From Escherichia phage vB_EcoM-Ro157c2YLVW: a stretch of 64,000 bases of DNA. Shown here piece after piece: positions 1 through 40,904 of the stretch. The stretch's first letter is position 1, and each line of letters opens with the position of its first letter. The DNA lies in sequence record NC_050153.1. One strand, given 5' to 3'. The notes under the pieces were generated by a model that saw only the letters and a program-made list of their open reading frames with translations, had not been told where the DNA came from and searched no databases. A program made the translations under genes and the position numbers.

Positions 1-125
1 TAAAGTTGTTTGGTGATCATGAAGTAGTTGGCAATAACGCCTGGTATATCCCTGGTGCTGATACAGATTGTGTGCTGTTCAATTGCCTCGCTCATCTCTT
101 CACGGGTGACTAATGACGTTCTCAT
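1..125 (-). CDS. Antirepressor-like protein, 5' end only (runs off window start); paralog of the 39863..40900 product
   Basis: Minus-strand translation from ATG at ~123-125 gives MRTSLVTREEMSEAIEQHTICISTRDIPGVIANYFMITKQL, which aligns with the N-terminus of the 345-aa antirepressor at 39863 (MKTPLVTRNEIAEAIALHTTCMPTREIPGAIANYFMITRRF). Start overlaps the stop of the upstream small ORF (ATGA). Confidence 0.6.
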   Translation of the reverse strand, partial: MRTSLVTREEMSEAIEQHTICISTRDIPGVIANYFMITKQL

Positions 126-343
126 AGCCCCTCCTGAGCAGAAGCGTTAACAGGGAGGCACCAGTAACTGAGAGAATTGCGCAAATCGGTAGAAAAGCGG
201 GCAGAGAAAATACAGGGAGCATCCGGAAGCTGAGAACGTGCCTCATCTTCTGTTGGTGCGATAACGAAGTGATAGTGACCTTTCTGGCAGGAGTAAAAGC
301 GCCAGATAAATTCAGGGCGTGCGCAAGGATTGGCATTAACCAT
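122..343 (-). CDS. icd: Icd-like small protein (73 aa), left copy, translationally coupled to ant-like gene
   Basis: 73-aa ORF about 85 percent identical to the 73-aa ORF at 39645..39866; stop overlaps the start of the downstream antirepressor-like gene, as for P1 icd-ant (from memory). Confidence 0.5.
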   Translation of the reverse strand: MVNANPCARPEFIWRFYSCQKGHYHFVIAPTEDEARSQLPDAPCIFSARFSTDLRNSLSYWCLPVNASAQEGL

Positions 344-394
344 AGTTACGGCCTCATGTACAGGTTTAACAACCTGCTACCCGCTGCTAAACGG

Positions 395-560
395 GTGGCA
401 GGACGTGACGGGGTTAGCAGACTGGCGTACATGAAACCAGCAGGCCGAAGCCTCCCCATCACGCCCCACCATAATTCGGGCGTAACGCGGTTTTACGGAC
501 ATAAAAATACCGCAATATCGGAAATCTGCGGTTGTCCGCATGTACATTCAGGCTGCTAAA
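395..560 (-). ncRNA. c4-like antisense RNA and leader region of the left immunity-I-like module (ends not defined)
   Basis: Non-coding leader nearly identical at DNA level to 39430..39644 in inverted orientation; contains one antisense site and two sense target sites that covary between the copies (cores near 357-360, 428-431, 541-544). Confidence 0.4.
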
Positions 561-643
561 CCCGGTCGCAGAATTTGCTACGACGGTGGAACTATAAGCC
601 TGAACGACGATGAGATCAATAGAGCCGTGTTCGATGGTAGGTT

Positions 644-677
644 ATTTGCTCTAATAAATCAAATTTATTAGAGCAAT
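644..677. promoter_or_regulatory. Palindromic pair of C1-repressor-operator-like sites upstream of the left immunity-I module
   Basis: atttgctctaataaatc followed by aaatttattagagcaat, the latter being the exact reverse complement of the P1 C1 operator consensus ATTGCTCTAATAAATTT (consensus recalled from memory). Confidence 0.6.
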
Positions 678-937
678 AACAATCTAGTTGAATGTTTCCT
701 CTCTGAGGTTGCAATGTGCACACTTAGTGTCTTATTTGTATGCACTAATAAATATATTATTTTTAATAATAAATAATTGACAACTGACAAGTGACTTCAG
801 TCAGAATCATCACACGCCCGGTACGGATGGATCCCTTTTCAAATATTCCATGGACGGCACAGTCTGAGTACCGGGCGCTACCTTCAGTTGTATTGCTAAG
901 CCGCCGCTGGTGGCTTTTCTTTTTTGTAGGGGGAGCT

Positions 938-1582
938 ATGGATAAGAAAATATGCGTTGTTTCGATGAGCGTCGGCAAACCGGCGTCAATGACTGCTGCA
1001 TGGATCAATAACGAGCTGATAATGGCTGAGCGGACCAGCTACCCTGAACGCCGCCGCGATATGGAACTCCAGCTGCTGCGCGAATTGCGAGAAAAAGAGG
1101 AGAAGGGTTTTATCGTGCTGGTGGAAGAGGAAAACAGCTTTATTACTGGTCGAGTTGGCCAGCGTGTAAGGTTGCGCGATCCCTTCATGAACGGCAGGCC
1201 GGTACTAATTGAGGCAATGCAGATTTATAAGGAGCTGGAACGCCAGAAAGCAATCAAGTTACCGCGCAAGGAATCCGGCAAATACATCCTCCACCAAAGC
1301 ATCTTCGATTCCGAACACGATAAAAAAGGCGATGAGTTTTTCAACATCAACTGGAGCGAAATAACGACAGAGCACGTTCTGACGTTGTTATGCTGCTTCG
1401 CAACGGAATACAACAACGTGGCAAGCGCAGACTTCATCAGGACAATGACAAACACCATTACTGAACAAGACAACAGATATTCACCATATGAACCATTTGT
1501 AAATATGATAAGAGCATTTTATCGGATGGAGCTCGCTAAAGTTCCTCAAGGTAAATTAACAGGTAAGGATAACATCTTTTAA
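938..1582 (+). CDS. Hypothetical protein (215 aa)
   Basis: ORF track 791..1582; start moved to internal ATG at 938 preceded by gggag; no recognisable motifs. Confidence 0.45.
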   Translation: MDKKICVVSMSVGKPASMTAAWINNELIMAERTSYPERRRDMELQLLRELREKEEKGFIVLVEEENSFITGRVGQRVRLRDPFMNGRPVLIEAMQIYKELERQKAIKLPRKESGKYILHQSIFDSEHDKKGDEFFNINWSEITTEHVLTLLCCFATEYNNVASADFIRTMTNTITEQDNRYSPYEPFVNMIRAFYRMELAKVPQGKLTGKDNIF

Positions 1583-1724
1583 GCATGGTAATGAGGTGCT
1601 TAGACGTTCATATCAATATCCTAACTCTCTGCATCTCATAAATCTGATAGCCACTTACTATCTATGGACTCAATCTCCACCAGAGGAATTGATGGAAAAA
1701 AATATCCCTGGGCACCCCATAGCC

Positions 1725-2324
1725 CTATCCCTTTTGATAGCTTATGACACTCAATGTTTTCAACACCTTCAGCGATGATATTCGGGCATAATTTTTTAAA
1801 TTACTAATAATGACATCAAAATGAGGATTAGTCCCATATTCTTGGAAAAAGGCCTTATCAAGTTTTATTGCATGGTATTTATTTTTAATTAATGTTTTCA
1901 TGGTGGTGTTGCCACTTCCAAAATCATCAAGCCAAACATAGTCTGTCAAAGTCAGGAGAAAGGGTATAACGTAATCCTCATCGCTTAAATCAGGGTAGTT
2001 TTCTGATATCTCAAGAGCTATAAATTTATTGTTTTTAATTAACTCTTGAGTTTGTTTATTACTGTATATATATATACATGTATCATAATCTACATTAATA
2101 GAACATAGTATATTATGGCGTTCAAAAAAACACTTGTATTTCATTATTGTGTTAAGTTGTGATTTAAGTAAATTAATCTTCATCTTATTGGTAAACATAC
2201 CCAATACTCTTTGAGTAGGAAGAGCGACACCATCTTTGGAGCGAAATCTGCTTAACACTTCTACTGCAATCAACTTGTTCGTGCTCGTAGAAATGATTGG
2301 TTCTGCAATGTAGATAACTTCCAT
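1725..2324 (-). CDS. Short EAL-domain-like protein (199 aa), probably non-catalytic
   Basis: Contains AVEVL (EAL-motif variant), LEISE, and WLDDFGSGNTT...IKLDKAFF matching the EAL-domain DDFGTG...KIDRSF core, but lacks the C-terminal EGVE/Q catalytic region; AT-rich relative to neighbours. Confidence 0.55.
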   Translation of the reverse strand: MEVIYIAEPIISTSTNKLIAVEVLSRFRSKDGVALPTQRVLGMFTNKMKINLLKSQLNTIMKYKCFFERHNILCSINVDYDTCIYIYSNKQTQELIKNNKFIALEISENYPDLSDEDYVIPFLLTLTDYVWLDDFGSGNTTMKTLIKNKYHAIKLDKAFFQEYGTNPHFDVIISNLKNYARISSLKVLKTLSVISYQKG

Positions 2325-2564
2325 ATCCCCACCCTCAAGTTTTAAATTGCTTGATTTTGCTCAGATAACGAGCCCCCTATATTTACAAGAGTTACACTCT
2401 ACTTTTGTAGATTAAATGTCAATTTATTTGTTTGTTTGTGATAATATTGAAAAACATCAATTAAAACAATCAAAAAATGTGACATAAATCAATAATTTTA
2501 TTTTTACACAACTTCTTGATTTCTGAGCCTGGCTATCTCTATTCTTATTCAAAGCCTCTTTAGA

Positions 2565-3299
2565 ATGGTGGTGGCCATGTCAGCAGTTTGTTACTTCATA
2601 CTCATAAAGAAACCTATAAGCTTTCAATTTCTTAAGGATTTCTTGATATTAAATTACGGTGATGTGTTGTTGCTTAAGCATTCTGAGCATGAATGCTTAA
2701 AAATGTATTCAGACAAATATATAGAATTCGAACTCAATGATAATACCGTAAGAAACTATTTATTATGCAGCAACAACCTTGGAAACCAATCGCTGGATAA
2801 GTGTCCACATTTGCTAAAAAAGTCTTTTGCCTATCCTGATTTATTAATCAGGATGATCGATAATATAAGCGACCAAAATCATATCCATTCTGATTTTAGG
2901 GAGGCAGTAACTTTTTCATTACTCTCAATTTTTAATGATGTTGATAACTTTAGAGCATTTCTTACGTCTGGTATGCCCACTTTCTCAGGGAAAGTGCGCA
3001 GCATATTTCTTTCAGATGTATCTAAACACTGGAAACTAAGAGACCTAACCGATTATCTCTACATGAGTGAAAGCTTAATAAAGAAAAAACTATTATTGGA
3101 AAACACCTCCTTCAGTAAGTTATTACTTGATACACGGATGGCTTTCGCTATTAAATTACTAAAGCAAAATCATTCAGTCAAACAAGTATCAGAAAGCTGT
3201 GGCTTTAGTAGTACATCGTACTTTGTGTGCCTGTTCAGGCAATATTATAATTGCACGCCACGTGAATATGCAAAACATCAGTTATTATCTGGAAAATAA
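2565..3299 (+). CDS. AraC/XylS-family transcriptional regulator (about 244 aa)
   Basis: C-terminal tandem helix-turn-helix signature typical of AraC family (…LTDYLYMSESLIKKKL…VKQVSESCGFSSTSYFVCLFRQYYNCTPREY); AT-rich gene. Confidence 0.7.
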   Translation: MVVAMSAVCYFILIKKPISFQFLKDFLILNYGDVLLLKHSEHECLKMYSDKYIEFELNDNTVRNYLLCSNNLGNQSLDKCPHLLKKSFAYPDLLIRMIDNISDQNHIHSDFREAVTFSLLSIFNDVDNFRAFLTSGMPTFSGKVRSIFLSDVSKHWKLRDLTDYLYMSESLIKKKLLLENTSFSKLLLDTRMAFAIKLLKQNHSVKQVSESCGFSSTSYFVCLFRQYYNCTPREYAKHQLLSGK

Positions 3300-3337
3300 G
3301 ATGCATTTATCTCCCAGATAATATTGTAATATTAAAC

Positions 3338-3586
3338 TCAGTCAGCATTTAGTAGCAGAGCATTATCTATGATGATCTGCTCCCATTCTTCGAATGCCCG
3401 ATCGCGGACGCCCTGGGGAACACTGTTAGTTTTGAAATCGACGACCGTACGCCATTTCCCGTCCGGACGGTACATGCGCAGAGCTTTACTTCCCCCTTCC
3501 CTGCGCACCTCAACGTTATGCTTGTCAGCAAACTCTTGTAATGCTCGTAGCGTCCCATGCTTTACTGTGTAGTATCGCTTTTTCAA
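3338..3586 (-). CDS. Small protein (82 aa), possibly Lxc/Bof-like C1 co-repressor by size and position
   Basis: 82-aa ORF overlapping the upstream ORF by 4 nt, last gene of the darB-strand operon; assignment to Lxc rests on recalled length and synteny only. Confidence 0.4.
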   Translation of the reverse strand: MKKRYYTVKHGTLRALQEFADKHNVEVRREGGSKALRMYRPDGKWRTVVDFKTNSVPQGVRDRAFEEWEQIIIDNALLLNAD

Positions 3587-4023
3587 GTTTTCTCTCCAGC
3601 CTGTGCCAAGGCTTCAACTTCCAAATCGTAAGACTCAAACTCATAGTCCTGGTCGTCAACTTCTTCAGGCACTGGCAGTAAATGCCAGGCTGAGTATATC
3701 TGACCATTATCAAAACGCTCCTGGCTGTAGAGCGTCGCGGCTATGAGTGTTAGCGCCGGGCGGTCATAACGGTAAATTTTGCGAACGTCACGGTCAACGA
3801 GACGACCGAAATTACCATAACCGCGCTCCAGTAATAATTTTTTAATTTCCGGCCAGTATGGGCCATAGCTGCGGTACAGACGGGGATTTTTCAGTAATCG
3901 CCCGCGTAGCCCTGACAGGAAGAAATCAACGTATTCGTCTTCTGTCTTTCCTAACAACGCTGTACGGAGTACCGCTTCAAGATATGTTTTATTCGGTTTT
4001 ATTGTATCAGATAGTGTGGCCAT
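3583..4023 (-). CDS. Hypothetical protein (146 aa), possibly Ulx-like
   Basis: ORF starting 34 nt downstream of the darB stop, same strand; no motif recognised. Confidence 0.4.
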   Translation of the reverse strand: MATLSDTIKPNKTYLEAVLRTALLGKTEDEYVDFFLSGLRGRLLKNPRLYRSYGPYWPEIKKLLLERGYGNFGRLVDRDVRKIYRYDRPALTLIAATLYSQERFDNGQIYSAWHLLPVPEEVDDQDYEFESYDLEVEALAQAGEKT

Positions 4024-4056
4024 ATTATGCGACGCCCGGCGAACCGGGCGCTCCTG

Positions 4057-7000
4057 TTATGCGTATTGTTGGATGACGGCCAGAACGTCCGCCACGTTGT
4101 GTTTTGTCTCGATAATCCACCAGTTACCCGGGAAATCGCTGTTCTTTGCCTTCGCTGGCAGCCAGCGAGCGCCGAATTTCGCCTTGATTGCGTCTTTCGC
4201 ACGGAAAAGAATGCCTTTCATGCCTGAGGCTTCCTGAAGCCCAAATACCTCGCCAGCGGCGAATTTTGGTGCGTACATCATCTTCAGGTCGGCGGTGGAT
4301 ACGCGATAATTCAGACCAAGAGACTGAGCTATGCTGGTGGCATCACCCTGTATTGATGATAACTCTTCTTGTTTCTCGTTTCTGGCGGCAATTTCTTCCT
4401 CCGTGATGTTGCCAAGGGCTAGGTTTATCCGATCAGCGTCGGCCTGTTTCTCTTCATCGGTGCGCCCGGCAAGAACCGTGTTAATTCTCTGCAATATCTC
4501 AACATGATTCTTGCGCATGCTGAGCATTTCCGGCGTAACCTCGTTAAGATCCACCAGCCCAAGGATGGCAAGGTCAGTAAACATTGATACCAGGTTGTAG
4601 GTCATGCGATAGCTGAGTTGGCCATAGGCTGATGGCAACTGCACCGCATCCATTTTATAGGCATCCATAAATTTAGAGCCGTCGTTTACGACATCCGCAA
4701 TTGCCGGTGTGATTTTTCCTGTGGTGGCGGCCTCCCTGATTGCTGTTACCCACGATTGAGTCAGCGCGGCGACTGCATGATTCAGATTGGCTTTTCGTTC
4801 TGCTGCAATGCGCGCACTTGCTGCGTCCATTGCCTGCTTGATCTCGTCTTTATTGCTGTAAATGCCAATGGTGCCAAACTGTGCTGTGGTGATCTCATAA
4901 TCTGACGCCCGGAACTCATTGGTACCGAAAATGGCATTGGTGACTTCAAGTTCAGAATCCCCGTTACGAGTAGCCCCCTGGCTTGTTTTTTCCGGCATTC
5001 TGGCGATCGCCTCCGCTATTTTCTCCTGAATTGCTTCAGGGGATAGCGTATCTCCGTATGACGCGATTACATCGCCATAATTGGAGCCAAACAATTCAAC
5101 CAGGAATGTTTCTGCCGAACGGATCTGGCGGTTATTCCCTTCCGACATCATACCAAGCACCCATTTTGCAATTGACGACTTCAGCGCGCCGTCACGGCGA
5201 TCCGGGTAAACCGCATGCTTCAGTGGGTCCGTATAGGTACCAACAAAATCAATGCTATAGCCTGACTCTGTAGTCTGAACGCCGTATGAGTCAGTGATTT
5301 TGATCATGCCGCGCTGCTGGAAACGGTAGAAATCGTCACAGGAAATGATGTCGTTAATCCCGGCGATGGAGACGCCACCACTGATTTTCTGCATAACAGC
5401 ATCTTCATCAGGAGTTACATCAACCTGTTTATCCAGCGTCTTCACATCCCAGTTACCCGATTTGGTGCCTTTGAAGGTAAAGATGATCTCCACGTCTGCG
5501 CGCTGGCTGTCGAAGTCCAGCGACTTAATGCGAACGATATCACCGGCACAATCGTAGTATTGGCCTACACGCCATGAGCGATCGCCGATAACAAGGAACT
5601 CACTCGCATGGTTAACCAGATCAGGATCAACATCCAGAATGCCTTTATTTATTGCATCCTCCACCAGCGGGCGCAGGCGTTTGATATCCGTCGCGGCCTT
5701 CTGAGTACGGTTCAATAATTTCTCATAGCGGGAGATGGCCTGAGAGATATTAGCCTTGCGCTGAATGGCGCTTTTCAACGACGCGCGATACTGTGCTAAC
5801 AACGTACGGTCTGTGTGATGGACGCTACCCCAGCGGGCTTTCCAGTCTGCGTTATCAGCTGCTTTGGCCATTACCGCCTGTTTGAATTTAGCTACCTCGG
5901 CGGTGGTCTTTTCAAGTTCCGCTTTGCTTCGCTCTAATTCAGCGGTAAGTACCTCCACATCCTCGCCTGCTGCGTGCTGCGCCTTGATGTAGTTCTGAAG
6001 GTCGATAGTAGCCTGTTCTTTCTGGCGAGCGCGTTGCGCGGCTTTCGCCTTATCCATTTGAACCTGCATCATTGCCAGACGTTCGCCATCATCCTTAGCG
6101 GTATACATCTGCATTTCGATCATATCGTTGGCGTCGGCGTTCTCCATTTCAGACTTATCTGAGCGGAGGATATCGGAGATCCAGCCTGCTTTACGCTTCA
6201 GCGTCTTCAGTCGGTATTCATCGAAAGAACCCTTGCCGCAGTAGTAGTGAACGCGAACGCTTGCACGGTTGGAACCAACTCGGGCACCGCGACCGTTACG
6301 CTGTGCGATACTGGCTGGTGTCCATGGCAACGTCAGATGATGGATGTCAGTCGTTCCTCGATGCAGGTTGATACCCACCTCTGCCTTTTTGGTGCAGATG
6401 ATGATCGGAGTCCGGCCCTCCTGGAAGTCGGCAGCAATCTTTTCCAGCCCGCCCAGCGACATTTCATTTTGCTGCGCGATATAGGCGTCATACAGAGCCA
6501 TTTGCTCGTTGTATTTCGCTATCTGTGCATCTGTTGGTTCATCCGGTAGCTCTTTCGGCGGTTTAACCGCTTTCAGTTTCTTACCGGTTTTACCTGCCTC
6601 GGCAACCGTCTGAGCATTCAGGATCCCCACCTTTGAAGGTTCAAGGTTAAGAGCATTGCAGATAATGCGCTTGAGCTTCTGGTGTTGCGTTTTTTCATCG
6701 GTGAAGATGATTTGCTTCCCTTCCGGGAAAAACTCCTTCAGCGTGGCAATCAGCTTCGCGTATTTGGGCGTAACGGGGTGAGTTACGGTCTGTTCGTCAA
6801 TGCCAAACCTGGCCAGGCGCTTATTCACTTCCTGCTCAAATGCTTCCGGTACCTGCAACTGAATAAACTCGCCCTTATCTATCAGGGAGTATTGCGATTG
6901 CTGCGTGATAGAATCATCACTGTCGTCGTCTTCGCTGGTGGCTTGTTTAGGCAAACTGTCCGCCAGCTGCTGCACCGCATCGGCGTACTCCGGCAGGAAA

Positions 7001-10000
7001 CGATAGGTGATCCGGCGATAGTACAGGTCCATGTCAGTACATACGCGGTCCATATCCCTGATTATTGAGAAGATCGGACGGGCTTTCTCGTGCTCAATCA
7101 CGCCGTCTTCATTGACCGAGGACGTTACGCCATTGTTGGCTTTGGCTGCCGCTTCCGCCTGCTGACGCAATTCTTCATACGCCGCCAGTTGTTCTTCAGT
7201 AAGTGGTGCATCCTGCTGGTGTTCGTCCAGCTCCGGGATCTCCACGGTATCCTTAACGTCTTCCGCCGTTTTAAGCGTTACCCAGCGATGGAATATACCG
7301 CGCAGCGCATCAAGGTTTTCAAAGCCCACCAGCGCCATTTTTTCTTCAACTTCACCGCTGATTTTCTGTACCGTTTCCAGCCTGGTCTTGCCGAAGAATT
7401 TAACGAAGTCATCAGGACCGTAGATCCCCATCTTCTGCCAGTATTCCTTCGGCAGAACATGAGAGAGCATGTTGTATGCATCGATCGGGGTGTTAACGAC
7501 TGGCGTTGCAGTCAGGAGAACCGGTCCGCGCCCGCCATTCTTTTTCATCAGGTACGCGTTTTTGATTGCCATATCCCGCGCCGATTGCGCCACCGCGCTG
7601 GTGGGCAGATAGGCCAGTTGTGACGCTTCGCGACCATTTTTATAGCTATTGCGGTAGTTGTGACCTTCGTCGGCGATCACACTATCGAAGCCCATATCCT
7701 CAAAGTACGGATACTTCTCTGCTTTTTCGGTACCGGTATCTGAATACTCCGACAATACCCAGCGACGCGCCGCCTCTTTACGATGGGAGTCGGAATCCAT
7801 TGCGCTGGCTACGCGCCCGGCGGCAACGAAGTCATAAAGCATGTCTTGTGCATGCTCATCTACGGTGTCATCACGTAGCGGAATGCGGGCGTATTGTTCT
7901 TTGGTAAACACGACTGCACGGTAATTTGAGTGCGGGATCGCGTTCATCCGCGCCGTGATAGTGGCTTCATCTGCCAGCTTAAGAGCATCGCGCATAACTG
8001 GAGTGCCATCAGTACCAAGAACAGGTTTACCGTTCTCATCGAGCACCGGCACCTGGCGAATCTGATCACCATCCATCAGCACATCAAGACCGACGAACAG
8101 GTAGTTACTGAATGCCTCTTCACTCAGGAACTCTTTTGCTTCGTAATACCAGTTTTCCAGCACTGATTTAGGCACTACATAAGCAGTACGGGTGGAGCGA
8201 CCGTTCTCATAGTTGAACGCCTCAAGCGCCAGCGCGGTCGTGGTTTTACCCAGCCCGGTGCCGAAGCCCAGGATGCCGCGCCCATCTTCGGACAGTCGGC
8301 GCACCTCGCTATTCTGGTAATCAAATGGCTGGCGCTTACCGCTTAATCCCTTCAACCCAAGCGGATCGCCAGAGTGTTCATACGGGATATTGCTATTGAA
8401 CACATCGTTGTATTTGGCAACCAGCTCATCGTAGCGATCGTGCGTCTTGATCCACTTATTGAACTGGTCCTCAAGCAGTGCCATCTGCTCGCGGTAGCCG
8501 TTCGCCGTCGCGCTATCTTTGCCACCGATACGCGCACCATTGAGATACTTTTCCAGCTGTGCCGGGAACCCGGTCGCGTTTTCACCTGATTTACGGTCCC
8601 ACTCGTAGCGGATCTCGCCTGTTTCTTTATCCTTGCGCTGGACGACACCGTATCGGTGCCCGACGAACAGACCATCACCACCGTGATAGGTGTCAGAAAC
8701 CATTTCGTCGCCTTCCAGCTGCACTGACTGCACATAGCGCAGATCCGGATAGCCGTTTTCCTGCAAAAACTCCAGAATGACGGAGCGGTCGAACCAACGG
8801 CTATTGAGCTTAAAGCGGATATTCTCTGCTGGCGTCTTGATGCGCTTCTCTTCGATCGCTGCCAGCTGATTAAGGACGTTGTTCTTTACTGGACCGTCGG
8901 GGAGCGTGGCGAGGAATTCCTGTTTTGGAGCCACTATCTCGTTAATGTCGCCGCTGGTGGCGCGGGCGAACGGAACAATCCCGCCATACGGTGAAACCGC
9001 AATGCCAGGGGTGCTGGCCAATAAATTAAGCAACTCATCATCACTGGCTGGCAGTTCGCCGGTAAACGCAAGGCGGAAATCATCGAGCTGGATTGGATCG
9101 CGAGTGAGATCACTGTAGAGATAACGCAGGGTGTCCTGATAGCTGGTGGAGTCATAACTGGCGCTGGAATCATGCGTAACCAGTTTTCCTGTCAGCTCGT
9201 CAGAAATAGTGCCATCCAGCTTAATTGCACCACGGAAAGCAAACCAGGCGCGCGCACCGCTCCCCGATAATTTCGCTATCGGACCGCGACCGGGGTTACC
9301 AAAACGGTCAATCTCTGCCTGCAAACGGGATACCAGAGAAAGGCGCTGCTGTTCGATTTGTTCAGCACTATGCCCGGCGGCCTTCATGTCCTGATATTCA
9401 ATTAACATCCGGCCAATCATCGCCCCGCGATACAAGCGTTCACGGTATTTTTCAGGCTGGCTGTTAATCCAGTCCACCAGCTGCACCATATCGTCGCTGA
9501 TTGATGTGGTGTACTTATCGCGGACATTTGCCATCTGGGTAAATGTCATGCCGAGACGGCCTTCTGTTGTAGTCAGGTTACGCTGAAGAGCCTCCCAGCT
9601 ATCCGCGCCATAACTGGCAGCATCGATCTTAAGTTCCTTCCCGGCATCAGCTTCAATCCAGCGACCACCAGCATATTTTTGCCATACGCCATTAATCAGG
9701 CGCATTTCCCCTTCACCAACAACGTCTGCGGTCGGTGACGGTTCAGCCATATCGAGCAAAGACCAGTCGATACGGCTTTCGAAACGATGAATCAGCTTCG
9801 CTTTAAGAGCCTGGTTATCAATCTGACCGTCGGCACGAACCTCAATACGCCCCCGGAAGCCCTTTTCTTGGGTGCCATGAACAAACCGGCGGCCATCCTT
9901 TTCAAACCACTTGCCAGAAATAAACGTTGGCCAAAGCACATTTGCTGATTCAAGAGTGCTTTCATCCACCAGGGGGATTTTCTCAGCCATCTCTGCCGGA

Positions 10001-23121: not shown

Positions 23122-23122
23122 G

Positions 23123-25807: not shown

Positions 25808-25814
25808 AGTACAT

Positions 25815-25852
25815 AAAGCCATCAATATTTCTATCGATGGCTTTATCTTTTT
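25815..25852. terminator. Hairpin terminator between convergent acetyltransferase and tail-fibre assembly genes
   Basis: aaagccatc…gatggcttt stem followed by atcttttta. Confidence 0.5.
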
Positions 25853-26429
25853 ATTGCGGGGCGACTGGCCACTCAACATCCGCTGCTACTGCTGTATCAA
25901 CACGATTCAACAATACCCGATATGTCTTCCATGCAGTCAGTAACGATGCCTCTTCCTCCGTCGCAATATCCAAATCTACGGCATCCTGAAGTGGCGCAAT
26001 ATGCTCACTGGCCATCTGCATCAGGCTGTTTTTTGTTTCTTCCGCCTTCCGGATCCGGAACAGTTTTTCTGCTTCTGCATCTTTCACCCAGGCTGTGCCG
26101 TTCCACTTCTGAAACTCCCCTTCCGGGGATAACCAGGTGACATTTTCCGGTAATGGGCCAAGTTCAGAAATAAATAACGCGTCGCCGGAAGCCACGTCAT
26201 AGACGGTTTTTCCCCGATGGTCTTCAACGAGATTCCACGATGCCTCATCACTGTTGAAAACGGCCACGAAGCCAGCCGGAATATCTGGCGGGGCAATATC
26301 GGTACTGTTTGCAGGCAGACCTGTATGAGGTGGAATGTATGCATCACCTTCACCAATAAACTCATTGGTTCCGGTCAGTAGATTATAAATTTTTATGGTC
26401 CGTGATTGTTCACTCATTCTGAATGTCAT
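25851..26429 (-). CDS. Tail fibre assembly chaperone (Tfa-like, 192 aa)
   Basis: Located immediately downstream of the tail fibre gene, size and acidic composition typical of Tfa/U proteins; start overlaps fibre stop. Confidence 0.6.
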
Positions 26430-29278
26430 TATGCAAGCCTCACAATATAGTTAAATGCGATGTTTTTTACGGTGTTTTCTTCGTTACCCGTAGCGTTAAC
26501 GGTGATGGTGTGTCCGTGGGGACCAATAATGACAGAATGGGCATGAGCACCAATGCCGATAGTGTGGTTATGGGCACCGATATATACATTGTGAGCATGC
26601 CCGCCTGCGCTCGACGTGGTACCAGTACCTAACGCAGCGTTAAAACCGGCTGATACACCATTCCCCGCGCCAGTGTGACCAACAGGTATATTGTGTGAAT
26701 GATTTCCAGCGCTATTCGTAGTTTTTGTGCCGTAATCAAATGAACTGGTCGTTTTAGTACCGTAATCAAACGACGATGTGGTTTTCGTCCCCAAATCCGT
26801 ACTGGATGCGCTGGCGCTGTGGGTGTGCGATTTAATGCCGTCCTGTTCCTGAGACAATACGGCACGACCACTGCCGGGCTTGCCCTTAATCGTCCAGCCA
26901 CGCATATCAGGAATAACGCCTGACGGATAAGCCGCTGCAAGTTTCGGGTATGCAGATTTGTCAAAAGTCTGCCCCTGCATCAGGGCATAACCAGACGGAA
27001 CGGTATCTGATGGCCACGGGATTGGTGCGCCGACTGGGTAGCTTTCTGGTGGAAGATTTTTCGAGGTATAAACTTCTGCCCAGTCTTCCTCAAAACCATA
27101 ACCGTCTCTTGAAGAACGGTAGAACAGACCACCATTTCTGTAATGCGCCTTCATCTGCAAGGTCGGGCAACTTCCGACTCCGGTATAGAAGTTAACCAGA
27201 ATATAGCTGTCGGCAGAGCGAATGACATTGTAAGCGCCTGATTCGGCATTCCAGGGAACGCCCCCATCCGCATCGGCATACGTATCCGTTGCTCTTCTGG
27301 CAAAAGCAGCAACATGCGCAGCGGTTAAAGTGATATCAGTAGAACCATCAAACGAGACGCCATTGATAGTACATGCTGTCTGCAACTTGGTCGCTGTAGC
27401 CGCATTACCAGAGGTGTCCTGATCCCCTTTGGCATTGACGCCGGGAATTGAATCTTTTGACGTATAGACCTGCGCCCATTCAGACCAGTTGGCAGAATCA
27501 GTATCACGCCGCGAACGGATATGTACGGGCGCATGGTCACCGCTCGTGCCACTCCAGCCAATGAATAACTCACCTTCGCCAGCAGCGGTGGCACCTTTAA
27601 GGTGAAGCACATTGCCATAGGTGGAAGGGTAGCCATTGTTGTATGCCTCATACAGCTGAATCCCGGATGTTCCCTGTGCATTCGCCTCTAGGGCCGTTAC
27701 GCGACCGCGAGATACCAGAGTATTGATATTAATGTCAGCCGAACCATCGAATCTGACGCCATTAATGTTTATGGCTGTTTTTAATTTCGTCGCGGTGTCG
27801 GCGTTCCCTGTCAGCGCCCCGGTGATCCCACCGTTGAAAGTCTGGCGTGCACTCCATTTGTTAGCCGTGCTCAACAGGGGGATCTTTTCACCGCTTGTGC
27901 CAAGTTCTCTTAAATCAAGGTATTGGATAACAGCAAGGACGCTTGTTTTGGCCAGAATATCGCGACCGACTGACGTTAAGTCAGTCTGAGAAATAGTGTC
28001 TGTACCGGTAAAGTACGGCAATTTATTTGCGCCTGTAGCAAGACCAGCAAGCGCGGTTAAAGTTGCATCCAGAGGCTGTTTGCCTGCCAGCGCATTTGTC
28101 ATTGTTGTCGCAAAGTTCGGGTCATTACCAAGTGCTGCGGCAAGCTCATTCAGGGTATCAAGAGCTTCTGGTGATGAACCAACCAATGCGGATATGGCAG
28201 CTCTTACATAAGCGGTCGTAGCAATCTGCGTGTTATTCGTACCCTGTGCAGCGGTAGGCGCAGTAGGTATTCCCGTTAATGCAGGACTTGCTAAAGGAGC
28301 TTTAAGAGCCAGAGCATTGTTGATAGTTGTGCTGAAATTCGGGTCGTTATTGATCGCAGCAGCTATTTCTTTAAGCGTATCCAGTGTGCCAGGTGCACCG
28401 TTGATAAGTGCCGTTATAGCTGCCTTAACAAAGGCTGTATTTGCGATCTGCGTGCTATTTGTACCTTGCGCTGCCGTCGGCGCGGTTGGCGTTCCTGTCA
28501 GACTCGGGCTTTCTATTGGCGCTTTGGTATCAGCAAGATCTTTTACAGACTTAACGGCTTTAGGGGTAGCCGCCATTGTTTCGCTGTCGCTGTTAGTTTC
28601 GCTACTGAGCTGAACTAATCCCTTTTGCGTTGTGCTTGCATCCTGCGCCGTATACTTACTGTTCGCCAGATCGTAGGCTTTTTTAACTGCCAGCGAACTT
28701 GCAGCAACATCACTTCTGCTACTGGTTACAGAGTCTGAAATATCAATGCCGATCGTGCGGTTAATACGCTCGGATGTATCAATCATCTCCTGGGTAATGG
28801 CTGATACTCCAGCAGGGATATTCACCGTACAAACAAGCAGCTCCCCATCTCCTAACTGATATGAATCGGTATAGGTTCTGGTAACAAATTCAGCCGCATG
28901 AATATGTGACGCGGTATTAACCTGATAGGTATCCTCTCCAAGGAGGTATCTTCCCTTCAGCACAATTGCATATTTCTTGCCTGCACTAAGTGCAAGAGGA
29001 ATATCCGTACATTGCTGAATAGTTACCTGGTAGAATTCACCAATATCCACCGACGCCGCGCCTGCGGTTTTATCTCCATCCACTGAGGTGATTAACAGGT
29101 TCATCCCACCGCCAGGCTTAGGTAAGAAACCGGCATAAAATCCCGGGTCAACAATCCCCCTGAATTTTCGGTTTAGCGCGGCTGACAGATATGGTTCGTG
29201 GTATTGCACATCAGCAACCAGAGCCAACGACTCGGGTGATGGGTAAGTAACCGATGTAACAACTGTAACGTCATTCAT
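26429..29278 (-). CDS. Tail fibre protein (about 949 aa)
   Basis: Tandem about 60-aa repeats (…[22 protein letters not shown]…NDPNF…), [10 protein letters not shown] x3, His-rich C-terminal repeats ([25 protein letters not shown]); start set to internal ATG (MNDVTVV) rather than the upstream TTG. Confidence 0.8.
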
Positions 29279-29289
29279 CAAGCATATCC

Positions 29290-29724
29290 TTATGCTGTAG
29301 TCGTGTTTATGGCCATAACTGCGGTATATGTTTTGCCCACATACAGCGAGTCTTCCTGGACACAAATAATGGCGATTGGCTTGTTCTCGTTATCCAGAAC
29401 AACCAGAGTGTTGAATGGGTAGTTTTTCCCTTCCTGCAACTGGCTTTGATCAAGGTCCATTCGGACAGTAATTATCCCACCTGAGTAGGTTGGCACGAGG
29501 TTGATGGTACAAAATTGGCTGGTCAGTTCTGCCAGATCGAAAGCCTTTGGCAGTTCTCCAATCTCATAAGTGCCATCTCCTTTCTTAGTAACCAGAGAAC
29601 TGGTACCGAAAACGGCCTTGCTGATTAAAAATCGAGAGCCTTTGTTAATGGACGATTCAGCGCGCCGCTGATAGTAATAGTCCAACAACTGACTCTTATA
29701 GAGGTTTGTTGAGACGTCAGACAT
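29290..29724 (-). CDS. Tail fibre / baseplate-associated structural protein (R-like, 144 aa)
   Basis: Small ORF immediately upstream of the tail fibre gene; synteny. Confidence 0.45.
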
Positions 29725-29802
29725 GATTTTCCCTAATCACTGTTGTGAAGCCTCATTGTAAGAGAAGTAACTTGTCACCCCGCCCTGCGGACGGGGTGAT
29801 TG

Positions 29803-32072: not shown

Positions 32073-32428
32073 AGCACCACGTCCTGTGTGATAGTTATAT
32101 CCCTGATACGAATGGATATTTTCAACTTATCAAAAGCATCTCCCTCGGCTACTGACAAGCCAGAAATCGGTATGTCAGGTAAATCTACCGTCAGTTTTTG
32201 CAACAGCATTGCCTCAACCGCAATTTGAACATGCGACAAGTTGGTCGGTTCGTGTTTAAACTGCGGTAAAACATTGCCCCATGACGGATCTCCGTATACC
32301 TCACCCTGATAAGTGTTTAGCCACTCATATAAACGAGCGCCCCAGGCCTCCTCCTGGGACTCATACGTTTTTACGCCGGATAACTCCAGCGTCAGCAAAG
32401 GATCAATTTCGTTATTGTTGGCCATCAA
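32069..32428 (-). CDS. Baseplate protein (GpW/gp25-like, 119 aa)
   Basis: About 120-aa ORF directly downstream of the tape measure gene with overlapping stop/start. Confidence 0.4.
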   Translation of the reverse strand: MMANNNEIDPLLTLELSGVKTYESQEEAWGARLYEWLNTYQGEVYGDPSWGNVLPQFKHEPTNLSHVQIAVEAMLLQKLTVDLPDIPISGLSVAEGDAFDKLKISIRIRDITITQDVVL

Positions 32429-35817: not shown

Positions 35818-35898
35818 GATCTTATCGCCTACCGCTTCGGTTTAAGTTTTTCTTCCAGTTTCTCCAACAGGAAAAACGCATAGGATTCAGTGAGCCTT

Positions 35899-36780
35899 TC
35901 AGCGTCCTGAATCGGTATACCCCCATACAAAACCAGGTTGGACACTAAGGTCTGATAGCTTTTCAATCCCCACCTGTGGAATGAAGTCGGTAGCCCGAAA
36001 GGGCACCCACAGACGGGTATACGCACCCTCTGTGGACTCCTTTGTATCCTGGTTTGGGCATTTGTGCGGCGGGAGACGAAGACGCATTTCGCCTTTATCG
36101 ATGTAGCACGGTAAACCATGTTCGAGCTTTTCATGAGCCAGCCGGATGTGTGCCGCCAGCTTCATAAATTCAGTATCAATGGCCATCCGTTTGATCGTTT
36201 CATAACGACGCTCAGCCTGCTCTTCACGAGTACCGCTAACATCGTTATAAAGTTCACACTGATAAGCGAATTCCCAAAAACGCAAATCAACGATCGCTTC
36301 TTTGAATTCCGCGTCGTCTTCAGGTGGCAATGCTGCACGGCGCATCTCCAGCATTTCCATTGCCCAACCATCAAGCGGCACGATACGCCATTGATAAGGC
36401 ACGCCCTCTACAGACACCTCAATATCGTCAATGAACGGTTCCACTTCCAGGACCTGGATATCTTCAGCCAGAGCATTCATATCGCAATCGTAATAATGCT
36501 CTTTACCGCAATGTTTACAGGTGTAGGTGAATGTCTCGACCGGTGTTTCACGGGAGCCAGTAAATATCCACCATAACGCGGTAATCCGGTCCTGCGCCGT
36601 CCATGTCAGGGGATCATATTTCGCGGGTTCAGCCAGCAAGACTTTTAAATACGCCGTTGTCTGTTGTTCTTGTTCCTCCGGTGTTATCGAGTTGAAACGC
36701 ATCGCATCAGCAATATTTGGCTGACGGAACTGGATCAATTCAGTTGGCCGCGATGGTAGCGGGAAAAGAGGTAAAAGCAT
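35899..36780 (-). CDS. Tail-module protein with Cys-rich putative zinc site (293 aa)
   Basis: CKHCGK…C and HKCP motifs; position between tube-like and tape measure genes. Confidence 0.4.
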   Translation of the reverse strand: MLLPLFPLPSRPTELIQFRQPNIADAMRFNSITPEEQEQQTTAYLKVLLAEPAKYDPLTWTAQDRITALWWIFTGSRETPVETFTYTCKHCGKEHYYDCDMNALAEDIQVLEVEPFIDDIEVSVEGVPYQWRIVPLDGWAMEMLEMRRAALPPEDDAEFKEAIVDLRFWEFAYQCELYNDVSGTREEQAERRYETIKRMAIDTEFMKLAAHIRLAHEKLEHGLPCYIDKGEMRLRLPPHKCPNQDTKESTEGAYTRLWVPFRATDFIPQVGIEKLSDLSVQPGFVWGYTDSGR

Positions 36781-36794
36781 CCTTGCTCCTTAAT

Positions 36795-37406
36795 TCAAAG
36801 AGAAAAACTAAAGCCCAGAAGGGAAGCTAAAGAACTTGAGGATTGGTTAAACGTGCTGTGCAATGCGAAGGTCATTGGGAATGACTTAAATTCCGTAACC
36901 TGATCCCGCGCATAGGTGACATCGCCGGTAGTGACCGGGAATACCGTCATCTCATTTTCCAGTTTGGTTAAACCGGAGGACAGCAACCGATAAATGCGCA
37001 CATTGAGCAAATATTTAGACGGTATATTCCCGGTACCGTCCGGATTGATAACCCGACCTTTTGCCGTCTTAAACCAGTCCAAAACGAGGCCATCAACGGT
37101 ATCCCTGACCATCATTGTTATCTGCCCAGGCGAACGCTCCGTTGGCTGAAGGATATTCCCTCCGCCGATTTTAATCGTTTCATATTCGATGCTGTAATCG
37201 TGGTAGGTAATGTCTTTAGCAAAGAAGTCTGCCCCCTCCAGACCATCAACTTCGACAGAGAACTGCCATCCTTGCGCGAACAGCATTTTGTTCATGATGA
37301 TTGACGTCAGCTTACCAACTTCCCGCTCACCAACGCCGGAGCCAAATAATGTCGTCGTTAATGCCGAAGATACATAAGACTTTACTGAAGCAACATTAAG
37401 CCCCAT
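36795..37406 (-). CDS. Tail tube-like protein (203 aa)
   Basis: Size and location upstream of tape measure gene. Confidence 0.4.
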   Translation of the reverse strand: MGLNVASVKSYVSSALTTTLFGSGVGEREVGKLTSIIMNKMLFAQGWQFSVEVDGLEGADFFAKDITYHDYSIEYETIKIGGGNILQPTERSPGQITMMVRDTVDGLVLDWFKTAKGRVINPDGTGNIPSKYLLNVRIYRLLSSGLTKLENEMTVFPVTTGDVTYARDQVTEFKSFPMTFALHSTFNQSSSSLASLLGFSFSL

Positions 37407-37416
37407 ATCAGCTCCC

Positions 37417-38007
<591 letters not shown>

Positions 38008-38041
38008 TTAACCGATTCTACGAGTAGTCATTTGTGACAGG

Positions 38042-38518
38042 TCATTTTGCGCGCTTCAGGCAGCCATCTTCAGGTGCCGCGTTGAAAAGCTCTGCGGCCT
38101 TACGTAGCGTAAATGTTGCGATTTTTTTTCCGTCTACGTATGCATCGAATGTTTTAACTTCCATATCAGGGGTATCTGACCAAAAACCATACCAGTAACT
38201 ATCACCCACAGAGGAACCGATAGAACTGATAGGATATTCATCATCACCAACTTTCAGCGTTATTTGTTCTTTTTTAGCATCAAATGACTCACCGCCAGGT
38301 TCTGTTTTCATGAGAGTGAGTAGTCGTGTTCCTACTTGATTGGGATCCGTATTATTAAATTCAACATCGCACTCAAATGTAAGCGTATAATTATCTTTGC
38401 TGGAAACAGCATAAGAACGAACACCATGAGTCTCGCCGGTTGACCATTTGCTTACATTTGCCATTGATGAAAACGGAGTAAGCAAAGCAATAACTAGTAA
38501 AAATCGTTTGATGCGCAT
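38042..38518 (-). CDS. Secreted protein with signal peptide (158 aa)
   Basis: N-terminal MRIKRFLLVIALLTPFSSMA signal sequence. Confidence 0.5.
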   Translation of the reverse strand: MRIKRFLLVIALLTPFSSMANVSKWSTGETHGVRSYAVSSKDNYTLTFECDVEFNNTDPNQVGTRLLTLMKTEPGGESFDAKKEQITLKVGDDEYPISSIGSSVGDSYWYGFWSDTPDMEVKTFDAYVDGKKIATFTLRKAAELFNAAPEDGCLKRAK

Positions 38519-38569
38519 TAATTTATCTCCTTTGGATATTAATATTTTAATTAGTTAACCACCATATAT

Positions 38570-39214
38570 TCACCATTCATAGGGTAAATTAAGCGCTTTT
38601 AAACCTTGCTGGAAAGTATTAAGAGATCCGTTTTTTTGTTGTTCCATTTTTTCGCGTGCAGCTTTCTCATACTGCTCCATCCGTTGGTTATACTCTTGCA
38701 ATTCCTCCGGGGAGAGGTTTCCCATTGGGGAGTTTGTACCCGGCCCCCTGGCCCGTTCTTCAAGCGTACCCTGAACGTTTTGATGGCGCATTCCCGGTGA
38801 GTTTCTGATTGAATCAATGCCATTTCTTCCAACGTCTTCTTTATTAACGGCATTGCTCGCCACCAGCACACCCCAGCTAGGAATAGCAAAATCAGGAGCG
38901 GTTTCGCATGCCTTTACCATATAATCGAAAGAGCTTCGATTGATCTCGTTTGCGTCGGGATTTAACAGGCGAGAATATTGATATTTAGCATTTTCGTTGG
39001 TTGCGACTTTATACAGTTCTTGCTGCACCATCGCTTCAGAAAGTTTAAGGCGTTTCATATCTGACAGTAACTTCTTGCGCATGGATTCGTCTTGACTGAC
39101 AGCAAAGCCGTAAACGTGCCCAAGGTATTTCGTATAATCGGTACAAATCTCCTTTACGCTTGATGCTGCATTAACAGTCCCAGCCATAAATAATAACGGT
39201 AGTAATAGTTTTCT
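38570..39214 (-). CDS. Secreted protein (possible Sim-like superinfection-exclusion candidate) carrying a motif shared with the tape measure protein
   Basis: Signal peptide MRKLLLPLLFMAGTVNA (start at internal ATG); C-terminal IRNSPGMRHQNVQGTLEERARGPGT matches two segments of the tape measure protein. Confidence 0.5.
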   Translation of the reverse strand, partial: RKLLLPLLFMAGTVNAASSVKEICTDYTKYLGHVYGFAVSQDESMRKKLLSDMKRLKLSEAMVQQELYKVATNENAKYQYSRLLNPDANEINRSSFDYMVKACETAPDFAIPSWGVLVASNAVNKEDVGRNGIDSIRNSPGMRHQNVQGTLEERARGPGTNSPMGNLSPEELQEYNQRMEQYEKAAREKMEQQKNGSLNTFQQGLKALNLPYEW

Positions 39215-39322
39215 CATTATAACCTCACCTGCCTTATAACTCATTTAGGGTACATATTTTCGCCTTTAAAAAAAAGAGGTTATTAGATCCAGTTGTGTAT
39301 TTACTAATCAGATAATGCTCTA

Positions 39323-39339
39323 ATAGATTTGTATTTTTA
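39323..39339. promoter_or_regulatory. C1-operator-like site upstream of the right immunity-I module
   Basis: aatgctctaatagattt, two mismatches to consensus. Confidence 0.45.
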
Positions 39340-39429
39340 AGTCGCGAATGCTATCTTTTCGCATCATATTGACCTTTTAATCGTTCAGGCTTATAGTTCC
39401 GCCGTCGTAGCAAATTCTGCGACCGGGTT

Positions 39430-39644
39430 TAGCAGCCTGAATGATTGTGCGGACAGCCGCAGATATCCGATATTGCGGTATTTTTGTGTCCGTAAAACCG
39501 CGTTACGCCCAAATTATGGTGGGGCGTGATGGGGAGGCTTCGGCCTGCTGGTTTCACAATCGCCAGTCTGCTAACCCCGTCACGTCCTGCCACCTGTTTA
39601 GCAGCGGGTAGCAGGTTGTTAAACCTGATTGTGAGGCCGTAACT
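39430..39644 (+). ncRNA. c4-like antisense RNA and leader of the right immunity-I module (ends not defined)
   Basis: Antisense element tcacaatc (about 39555-39561) complementary to gattgtg at about 39443-39449 and at about 39627-39633, the latter lying 12 nt upstream of the icd ATG over the putative Shine-Dalgarno; UUCG-tetraloop hairpin aggcttcggcct nearby. Confidence 0.45.
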
Positions 39645-39866
39645 ATGGTTAATGCCAATCCTTGCGCACGCCCAGAATTCATCTGGCGTTTCTATTCCTG
39701 TAAAAAACACCACTATCACTTCGTTATCGCAGCAACTGAAGACGAAGCACGCTCTCAATTGCCTGATGGCCCCTGCATTTTTACTGCCCGTTTTTCAACT
39801 GACTCGCGCAATTCACTTAGTTACTGGAGCCTCCCCTTCTCTGCCAACGTTCAGGGGGGTTTATGA
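39645..39866 (+). CDS. icd: Icd-like small protein (73 aa), translationally coupled to ant
   Basis: 73 aa; stop overlaps ant start (ATGA); paralog at 122..343. Confidence 0.55.
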   Translation: MVNANPCARPEFIWRFYSCKKHHYHFVIAATEDEARSQLPDGPCIFTARFSTDSRNSLSYWSLPFSANVQGGL

Positions 39867-40900
39867 AAACACCTCTCGTCACCCGTAATGAAATAGCCGA
39901 AGCGATCGCTTTGCATACAACCTGTATGCCGACACGGGAGATCCCCGGCGCAATTGCCAACTATTTCATGATAACCAGACGTTTTTATACCCGAACAGAT
40001 AAGGCTGTGATCAACAGGCTACTGATAGCCGAGATCAGGGATTATTTGATTGAACAAGGACGTCTACGTTACGCAACAGTGGCAGCAGAAATGAGAAAGG
40101 AGGCGCGCAGAATGACCGGTAATAATTTGAATGTTGAAAAACCAGCACCTGTTGCTTCAGCTACGCCATCACCAGCAGTGAATGTTATCTCCAACACCGG
40201 AGACACAATCGACAGCCTGACACTGTTAAAGATGGTCAATGAAGCGCGTAAGTTATGTGGGGAACCAGAGGTTCGGAACAACAAATTCATCGAAAAAATA
40301 CTCGATGAGCTTGATGGTGAGCACTACACAAAAAGTGTAGTGGAAAAAATGAACAAAACATCAATGCTTGTCATAACCATGACTTTCAAACAAGCCCTGC
40401 GAGTCGCCGCGCGCGAGTCAAAAGCGGTCCGCCGTTCGCTGATCGACAAACTGGAAGAATTGCAGCAGGCAAACTCCCCTGCCCCATCGATCCCCCAAAC
40501 ATTACCAGAAGCTCTACGCCTGGCTGCCGAGTTGGCAGAACAGAAAATGCAGCTGGAACAACAGCTGGTGGCCGCAGCCCCTAAAGTCGATTTTGCCGAC
40601 CGGGTATCAGTGGCTAATGGAATCCTGATCGGGAACTTTGCAAAGGTCGTTGGACTTAAGCAAAACGCCCTTTTCTCATGGTTGCGCCAGAACGGCATTC
40701 TCATGGCTTTTGGTGCGCGCAAAAACGTACCGCGCCAACAGTACATCAACGCCGGGTATTTCACGGTGAAAGAAGTGGTGCTGGATGATGAAAATGGCTA
40801 CCAGATACGGCTGACGCCCCAATTAACGGGTAAAGGCCAGCAGTGGTTAACTCGCAAGCTACTTGATGCTGGTTTGTTAAAACCAGTAGCAATAGGTTAA
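39863..40900 (+). CDS. ant: Antirepressor (Ant-like, 345 aa)
   Basis: C-terminal about 130 aa paralogous to the C-terminus of the KilA-N protein at 41064 (…PEALRLAAELAEQK…GKGQQWL…LLDAG…), typical antirepressor C-terminal domain. Confidence 0.75.
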   Translation: MKTPLVTRNEIAEAIALHTTCMPTREIPGAIANYFMITRRFYTRTDKAVINRLLIAEIRDYLIEQGRLRYATVAAEMRKEARRMTGNNLNVEKPAPVASATPSPAVNVISNTGDTIDSLTLLKMVNEARKLCGEPEVRNNKFIEKILDELDGEHYTKSVVEKMNKTSMLVITMTFKQALRVAARESKAVRRSLIDKLEELQQANSPAPSIPQTLPEALRLAAELAEQKMQLEQQLVAAAPKVDFADRVSVANGILIGNFAKVVGLKQNALFSWLRQNGILMAFGARKNVPRQQYINAGYFTVKEVVLDDENGYQIRLTPQLTGKGQQWLTRKLLDAGLLKPVAIG

Positions 40901-40904
40901 CAAA

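Follow-up and report, generated by a model that had tools for sequence, protein, structure and literature searches.

Two immunity cassettes form the arms of the inverted repeat

The DNA analysed here is a stretch of 64,000 nt (the window) of Escherichia phage vB_EcoM-Ro157c2YLVW (NC_050153.1), and the system in question is the immunity I (immI) region known from the phages P1 and P7, in which the antisense RNA c4 controls icd and the antirepressor gene ant. The best whole-backbone match of the window is pO111_2 (NC_013370) from E. coli O111:H- 11128 (about 99.3%), with which positions 3342-64000 are collinear at 99.2-99.5%. A repeat search found a single long inverted pair, 153-621 and 39367-39835, and no further long repeats in the window, either direct or inverted. 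The two arms align without gaps over 469 nt, are 88% complementary (413/469) and are separated by 38,745 nt. Outwards, weaker similarity (66%; 100/152 in a pairwise alignment of 1-152 with 39836-39987) extends into the start of ant, which brings the total to about 620 nt and reaches window position 1; inwards, the similarity drops off past the promoter (46/79). The identical runs between the arms measure 45 (the longest), 42, 42, 34 and 32 nt. A repeat of such length and identity is far beyond chance, and the earlier note on this DNA had described it accurately as inverted repeats of about 0.6 kb around roughly 39 kb.

As described in two publications (PMC12197685, PMC8546580), the a' and b' loops of c4 in P1 and P7 pair with the targets a2 and b2 at the ribosome-binding site of icd and thereby block the expression of icd and ant; Ant1/Ant2 inactivate the C1 repressor; and differences in c4 and its targets underlie the heteroimmunity of the two phages (the same publications, citing Citron & Schuster 1990, 1992; Heinrich et al. 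1995). Both arms were aligned with immI as annotated for P1 (NC_005856) and P7 (AF503408), and all parts were found in both. The Rfam model of c4 (RF01695, gathering score 45 bits) is matched over its full 87 positions at 391-476 on the minus strand (71.7 bits) and at 39512-39597 on the plus strand (69.6 bits). A full c4-a1b1 element (RF03163, gathering score 46.7 bits) is likewise present in each arm, at 545-597 (-) with 55.7 bits and at 39391-39443 (+) with 55.5 bits.

The left cassette reads on the minus strand. It begins with a C1 operator at 661-677, predicted from its perfect match to the consensus ATTGCTCTAATAAATTT and adjoined by an imperfect inverted half-site at about 641-657. The predicted promoter at 591-619 (-35 TTGATC, 614-619; -10 TATAGT, 591-596) aligns with the P1c4/P51b promoter of P1 and is assigned by this conservation. 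The targets a1 (TTAGCAG, 553-559) and b1 (GTACATG, 539-545) follow at 539-559, beside or within the c4-a1b1 match. The c4 RNA itself spans 394-470 (77 nt, as deduced from the homologous mature c4 of P1), with the loops b' (CATGTAC, 427-433) and a' (CTGCTAA, 414-420). In the icd leader (355-390), a2 lies at 384-390 and b2 at 355-361, where it directly abuts the GAGG Shine-Dalgarno sequence of icd. The icd-like open reading frame (ORF; 122-343, 73 amino acids) is intact, and its counterparts in relatives are annotated as Icd-like. The ant gene starts at 125 (MRTSLVTREEMSEAIEQ...) and runs off the window at position 1; as the earlier note had seen, the window edge cuts it, here after 41 codons. 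In close relatives a protein of 370 amino acids with ORF6N and KilAC domains is encoded at this position.

The right cassette has the same parts on the plus strand: a predicted C1 operator at 39314-39330, the counterpart of Oc4/Op51 of P1 with two mismatches to the consensus; a predicted promoter at 39369-39397 (-35 TTGACC, -10 TATAGT); a1 (TTAGCAG, 39429-39435) and b1 (GATTGTG, 39443-39449) within 39429-39449; c4 at 39518-39594 with b' (CACAATC, 39555-39561) and a' (CTGCTAA, 39568-39574), i. e. of P7 specificity; and a2 (39598-39604) and b2 (39627-39633) within 39598-39633. Icd (39645-39866, 73 amino acids) and Ant1 (39863-40900, 345 amino acids, with a KilAC domain) are encoded next and are followed by the operator Op53 (40978-40994), kilA (41064-41864) and repL (41894-42739), all on the plus strand. 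In both cassettes the stop codon of icd overlaps the start codon of ant in an ATGA, an arrangement typical of translational coupling. The description of two inverted modules that both read outwards, the left one with icd and ant on the minus strand and the right one with icd, ant1, kilA and repL on the plus strand, is thus borne out. Six matches to the C1-operator consensus are present in the window, compared with 0.02 expected by chance. C1-operator-like sites also occur at 55931-55947 and at 60476-60503, the latter as an overlapping inverted pair (60476-60492 and 60487-60503).

The right cassette sits at the canonical immI position, between the sim region and kilA-repL. The left cassette does not; it sits between cra/c8 and mat. 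Positions 740-1447 are mat and match P1 2629-3336 at 96.8%. In P1, ref (2077-2637) lies just left of mat and is preceded by c8/cra and cre, whereas neither ref nor c8 is found in the window. The left cassette thus occupies the place of ref.

As each arm contains all parts of the cassette, what appears as an "inverted repeat" is the regulatory portion that two complete cassettes have conserved. We regard it as very likely that these are two full immI-type cassettes, paralogous to each other and represented in the repeat by their regulatory halves, in a P1-family phage-plasmid of the pO111_2 kind.

Recognition sites of the two c4 RNAs

In the alignment with P1 and P7, the positions at which the arms differ are concentrated in the recognition sites of c4. 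The P1 cassette has the a target TTGACAG (loop CTGTCAA) and the b target GTTAGTG (loop CACTAAC). P7 has TTAGCAG (CTGCTAA) and GATTGTG (CACAATC), and the right cassette is identical to P7 at all six sites (a1, b1, a', b', a2 and b2). The left cassette combines the P7-type a site, TTAGCAG (CTGCTAA), with the b target GTACATG (CATGTAC), in which four of the seven positions are changed, with the matching change at each of b1, b' and b2. We refer to this combination as aP7b3. In both cassettes of the window, a2 and b2 are perfectly complementary to the a' and b' loops of their own c4 (7+7 nt), and neither c4 matches the b targets of the other cassette. Judged by these sites, the left cassette is a third b specificity and a predicted new specificity variant of the known P1/P7 system. 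With 12% divergence and coordinated changes, the arms are apparently old paralogues and not the result of a fresh duplication.

Compared with the immI region of P7 (c4-icd-ant1/2), the right cassette shows no notable difference: the six sites, the gene order and the kilA-repL neighbourhood are the same. The left cassette shares the a site with P7 but differs in the b site, the operator/promoter stretch and the location, at the place of ref, and the Ant of its relatives has an ORF6N middle domain. P1 immI has the same architecture and follows the same principle, in which the immunity specificity depends on a handful of bases in the loops of c4 and in their mRNA targets.

Further types were found in other plasmids. 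They are b4 (ACGAATG, loop CATTCGT); b5 (GTCTAAGG, loop CCTTGGAC), which is accompanied by a5 (UUGGCCU, loop AGGCCAA); b6 (ACTTACG, loop CGTAAGT); and a variant from the site between pacB and c1 (GCAAAAGG, loop CCTTTTGC) with the a target TTGGAAC (loop GTTCCAA). An additional matched type is present on a contig of a metagenome-assembled genome. In this small sample there are at least six b types besides those of P1 and P7; altogether, about 25 cassettes comprise at least four a types and at least eight b types; they vary mainly in the recognition sites, and the changes are always compensated at three separate places.

The covariation of these sites was tested in an alignment of six distinct cassette types, in which the intermolecular pairings were scored as helices (84 cells). 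The pairings of c4 with a2/b2 and of a1/b1 with c4 each consisted entirely of standard pairs. Two-sided changes occurred in 7 of the 14 pairs and one-sided changes in none. When the partners were slid by one to three columns as a control, 23-51% of the cells were paired. Variable columns made up 21 of the 42 in the recognition sites and 12 of the 195 elsewhere (Fisher's exact p = 1e-10). The predicted energy of the b-site duplex is about -19 kcal/mol for cognate and -7 to -14 kcal/mol for non-cognate partners; discrimination at the a site is predicted to be weaker (-9 versus -6.6 kcal/mol).

Distribution of accessory cassettes

With window positions 1-1500 as the query and at least 80% coverage, the left cassette together with its junction to mat was found in 57 plasmid records of PLSDB and 54 complete E. 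coli genomes, with identities of up to 97.9%. The hosts include E. coli, E. albertii, E. fergusonii and Shigella. The left-cassette query hit 1,037 places in 680 plasmid records, hence extra cassettes are common in the P1-like family. The cassettes were found almost only on P1-family backbones, with 1,692 of 1,728 places on plasmids. The cassettes were located with an nhmmer profile, as a strict regular expression overlooks P1 and the divergent cassettes between pacB and c1, and the census of types rests on PLSDB and RefSeq E. coli records. A pattern of the c4 core (23 specified bases, free b' loop) gave no exact match in IMG/VR and none in the JGI metagenomes; in the GTDB species genomes it occurred on a single contig of a metagenome-assembled genome. 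P1-family sequence seems to be missing from IMG/VR and the JGI metagenomes, although hundreds of plasmid records contain the motif.

P1 and P7 have one cassette each, which agrees with the tentative view of the earlier note that P1 carries no second icd-ant module. The note had further proposed that the duplication could be specific to this element, and here the comparison speaks otherwise: the left module is fused to mat in the 57 plasmid records and 54 genomes mentioned above, pO111_2 and pTA13-2 among them. The module is absent from the reference phages and common in their relatives, and hence neither private nor universal. The layout has been inherited, is found widely and keeps a single orientation; as the question was originally posed, it is ordinary.

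In whole relatives, cassettes occupy six backbone sites: the canonical one (sim region-kilA), cra-mat, pro-lyz, pacB-c1, dbn-gene 5 and a site downstream of mat. Up to five cassettes are present per relative. The five of pOkiPb01717_1 (NZ_AP042707.1, 98 kb) lie at 26453, 53624, 80237, 91045 and 98703, the last of them crossing the origin of the record, and all five differ in their combination of a and b. One of them, between the dnaB/dbn genes and gene 5, is at a site at which no other plasmid was seen to have a cassette. The b6 cassette (NZ_LC511659.1, 1439-1988) lies downstream of mat in a plasmid that has retained ref, and its ant is replaced by a Tn3-family transposase. NZ_CP027443 and NZ_CP028125 are 100% identical to the window only from the right cassette through kilA.

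Six elements with 20 cassettes were typed. The window has aP7bP7 and aP7b3. The plasmid pTA13-2 (NZ_CP069714) has the identical pair, aP7bP7 at the canonical and aP7b3 at the cra-mat site, and a third cassette of the pacB-c1 type. In pO111_2 (aP7bP7, aP1b3, a5b5) a cassette is present at the same cra-mat site, but it has a P1-type a site and an apparently truncated ant, and the plasmid is without the EAL/AraC insert described below. In both pO111_2 and pTA13-2 the third cassette lies between pacB and c1, a region outside the window. CP027575 has aP7bP7, aP1b4 and a5b5; CP013030 has aP1bP7, aP1b3, aP1b4 and a5b5; and pOkiPb01717_1 has aP1bP7, aP1b3, aP7b3, aP1b4 and a5b5. Among these six elements, no combination of a and b was repeated within one element.

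Across plasmids, the cra-mat site contains aP7b3, aP1b3, aP7b4 or aP1b4; site and type are thus not tied to each other. The operator/promoter stretch of the left cassette (about 600-668) is identical to that of pro-lyz cassettes of other plasmids. The same stretch differs at many positions from the cra-mat cassette of p99_1145-3. The comparison included 16799-17347 and 9119-9668 of locus L001. Together with the reassorted a and b types, the operator/promoter identity suggests patchy gene conversion between cassettes. Over evolutionary time, sequence seems to have been exchanged between cassettes by such patchy conversion rather than by inversion of segments.

Ant proteins of the two cassette classes

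According to Pfam, the canonical Ant1 (345 amino acids) has a KilAC domain only, whereas the accessory Ants (370-372 amino acids) have ORF6N and KilAC domains. Ant1 and the cra-mat Ant of p99_1145-3 are 57% identical overall: about 60% in the N-terminal 90 amino acids and about 92% at the KilAC end, with the middle replaced. The 41-codon fragment at the left end of the window is assigned to the accessory Ant type. An intact left Ant of 370 amino acids is present in pTA13-2.

Possible function of stacked cassettes

How would an element profit from two cassettes? If each c4 shuts off mainly its own cassette, a prophage with both would silence the incoming Ant of both types and thereby enjoy a broader superinfection immunity. 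An infecting phage, in turn, would still make Ant in a lysogen that misses one of its c4 types, which would amount to counter-immunity. For this proposal, that cassettes which do not repress each other broaden superinfection immunity and provide counter-immunity, we see the chances as about even. Inferred here are a lack of cross-repression in vivo, an action of the ORF6N-type Ant on C1 and an arms race as the rationale. Taken together with the structural interpretation of the arms, it is probably the best explanation of the data. A more far-reaching, and tentative, possibility is that these plasmids carry arrays of one to five antirepressor cassettes gated by antisense RNAs, in which the a and b sites form a combinatorial immunity code that is reassorted and records an arms race. 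Each cassette would then be a lock, as its c4 guards the resident prophage, and a key, as its Ant breaks an immunity that lacks this c4.

Several observations weigh against the immunity proposal. The two cassettes of the window share an identical a site, and partial cross-repression is possible; in pOkiPb01717_1, two cassettes have the same b site (b3) and different a sites, and specificity could reside in a, in b or in both. The typed elements are close relatives with backbones that are 97-99% identical, so that the distinct combinations of a and b may be inherited and not selected; they are consistent with selection and no proof of it. The left ant is incomplete in the window, and the middle domain of the accessory Ants (ORF6N) is different from that of Ant1. 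Moreover, several accessory cassettes are decaying in relatives, which makes it possible that they are dispensable in settled plasmids. At the cra-mat site of pO111_2 only an ant fragment of 333 nt is annotated, ant thus appearing truncated, and c4 and icd are intact (locus L005, 2472-3805); at its pacB-c1 site an IS1203 lies between icd and ant, again with c4 and icd intact (locus L006, 43646-46295); and the pacB-c1 ant of pOkiPb01717_1 is frameshifted. Damage to the ant half with retention of c4-icd would fit a benefit of the c4 half to the resident plasmid, though partial decay would look alike.

This damage to accessory cassettes, i. e. the IS1203 and the 333-nt fragment in pO111_2 and the frameshift in pOkiPb01717_1, is also what would be expected if the left cassette were a non-functional relic of a past recombination with another P1-like plasmid and had no role in immunity. 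We consider this unlikely, as the regulatory parts on the left are all intact (c4 with 71.7 bits compared with 69.6 bits in the canonical cassette, a perfect operator and an intact icd), as neutral decay would not keep the perfect complementarity of three b sites, and as the retention of c4-icd where ant is lost fits selection on the c4 half, the defensive one. The accessory ORF6N-KilAC Ant could, on the other hand, be functional and act on the repressor of another co-resident prophage or plasmid instead of the C1 of P1. The ORF6N domain, which Ant1 does not have, the overall identity of only 57% and the abundance of prophages in the Shiga toxin-producing E. coli hosts would be in line with such a target. 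Yet the KilAC end is about 92% and the N-terminal 90 amino acids are about 60% identical to Ant1, the left cassette itself is under a perfect match to the C1 operator, and the cassettes are almost confined to P1-family backbones (1,692 of the 1,728 places being on plasmids), which together render a different target quite improbable. A type I toxin-antitoxin pair of c4 and icd was considered as well. It was rejected because a single C1-controlled promoter drives the transcription of c4 together with icd-ant and because the established role of the system is the control of the antirepressor.

The remaining alternatives concern the origin of the layout. The earlier note had pointed out that homologous recombination between the arms would invert the segment between them. 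RecA-dependent crossing-over would flip the block, swap the promoter-proximal halves of the cassettes and produce two isomeric forms. In principle this is possible: inverted arms of 469 nt with 88% identity and identical runs of up to 45 nt are enough for a rare homologous exchange, and the reassorted a and b types and the operator/promoter shared with pro-lyz cassettes are signs of sequence exchange among cassettes. However, divergence and short identical runs lower the rate of homeologous recombination, and 12% divergence with runs as short as these predicts very low rates. The predicted product was also not seen. A synthetic inverted junction (622-1447 in reverse complement, followed by 39367-41864, so that mat comes to lie beside c4-icd-ant1-kilA) was found at 80% coverage or more in none of 820 plasmid records and none of 813 E. 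coli records (784 genomes), where about 55 records in each of the two collections carry both cassettes; the highest coverage, 75%, is the normal canonical locus. Every whole relative compared (pO111_2, pOkiPb01717_1 and CP027575) is collinear with the window. Neither arm has a recombinase gene as its neighbour, and the arms, which are composed wholly of cassette parts, have no crossover site of their own. Two isomers are hence very improbable; in our interpretation, no invertible element ends at the arms, and the inverted layout simply reflects the fixed orientation of the cassettes at their backbone sites. Even less credible, to the point of being negligible, is a recent duplicate of the canonical immI region specific to this element, or a mis-join, the latter corresponding to the assembly artefact which the note had considered for the left copy. 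P1 and P7 do have a single cassette, and the left copy lies right at the edge of the window. Had it arisen by an artefact or by a recent duplication, though, near-identity to its source would be expected, and the copies are 12% apart with compensatory changes at three sites; the left cassette and its mat junction are present in dozens of independent complete assemblies from several host species; and the left ant of relatives encodes a different middle domain.

Relation to known systems

The interpretation as stacked immunity cassettes extends a known theme. In the P1/P7 heteroimmunity there is one cassette per phage and the contrast is between phages, whereas here two specificities, and in relatives up to five cassettes, are combined in one genome. 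The immI region of P22, in which ant is controlled by the antisense RNA sar and by the repressors Arc and Mnt, is similar in that it is a secondary immunity region with an antirepressor partly held off by an antisense RNA. It differs in its unrelated RNA and proteins, in having only one cassette and in the lack of a two-site code (a and b). Additional icd-ant genes have been recorded in P1-like plasmids before: Venturini et al. 2019 (PMC6906374) reported icd-ant1/2 homologues in pSvP1 (region RD-1) and, for pTZ20_1P and RCS47, an ant gene located between pacB and c1. These are accessory cassettes of the same kind, described there by gene content and without an analysis of c4, recognition sites or specificity. 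Stacked cassettes of putatively different specificity in P1-like plasmids thus appear in the accessible literature only as records of gene content, and an earlier description in subscription journals is possible.

Other features of the window

The bracketed block (740-39300) is backbone. It contains mat, an insert with EAL and AraC-type helix-turn-helix (HTH) genes, a darB-type methylase gene, the portal gene, pro, lysis genes, ssb, the dar antirestriction genes, tail fibre, baseplate and tail genes, and ORFs at the sim position. The block is collinear with pO111_2 and not part of the repeat system itself.

The insert (1447-3342) comprises a gene for an EAL-domain protein and a gene for an AraC-type HTH regulator (ORFs 1725-2324 on the minus and 2565-3299 on the plus strand), roughly at the place of res-mod in P1. 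This stretch between mat and the genes on the darB side is absent in pO111_2 and present in p99_1145-3, pEA24_3 and pOkiPb01717_1. It could be cyclic-di-GMP-related cargo of the phage-plasmid. Just upstream of the canonical cassette, at 38042-39244 on the minus strand, two ORFs of 158 and 224 amino acids, with N-termini that are hydrophobic and by eye resemble signal peptides, are located where P1 has simABC and P7 two genes for envelope proteins.

Full-length Rfam matches were obtained for the sok antitoxin RNA at 43048-43222 (+; 114.8 bits), right after repL, where relatives annotate hokD, and for IS009 at 25888-26086 (-; 192.7 bits, gathering score 117), by collinearity in the tail-fibre-assembly region. 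Four tRNA genes are present on the plus strand, a tight cluster of three at 61158-61401 (one of them weak, with 41.9 bits) and a fourth about 2 kb downstream at 63337-63409; their counterparts in pOkiPb01717_1 are annotated as Asn, Tyr, Thr and Ile. P1 has three tRNA genes.

Meaning for P1-like plasmids

The replication gene of this lineage, expected at about 52500-53400 of the window by collinearity with pO111_2 53598-54482, is annotated as a RepB-family initiator. If the lineage were compatible with IncY P1-like plasmids, two prophages that share C1 could reside in the same cell, which would give a use to extra c4 types.

The heteroimmunity of P1 and P7 is a textbook case of immunity specificity set by an antisense RNA. 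Here this case is multiplied within one genome and diversified into matched pairs of RNA and target. The cassettes offer a natural set of small RNA regulators, possibly without cross-reaction, with which it can be tested how many base changes are needed to make antisense RNAs independent of each other and whether the a and b sites act together. They also bear on the question whether stacked cassettes widen superinfection immunity among those P1-like plasmids by which resistance and virulence genes are spread in E. coli.

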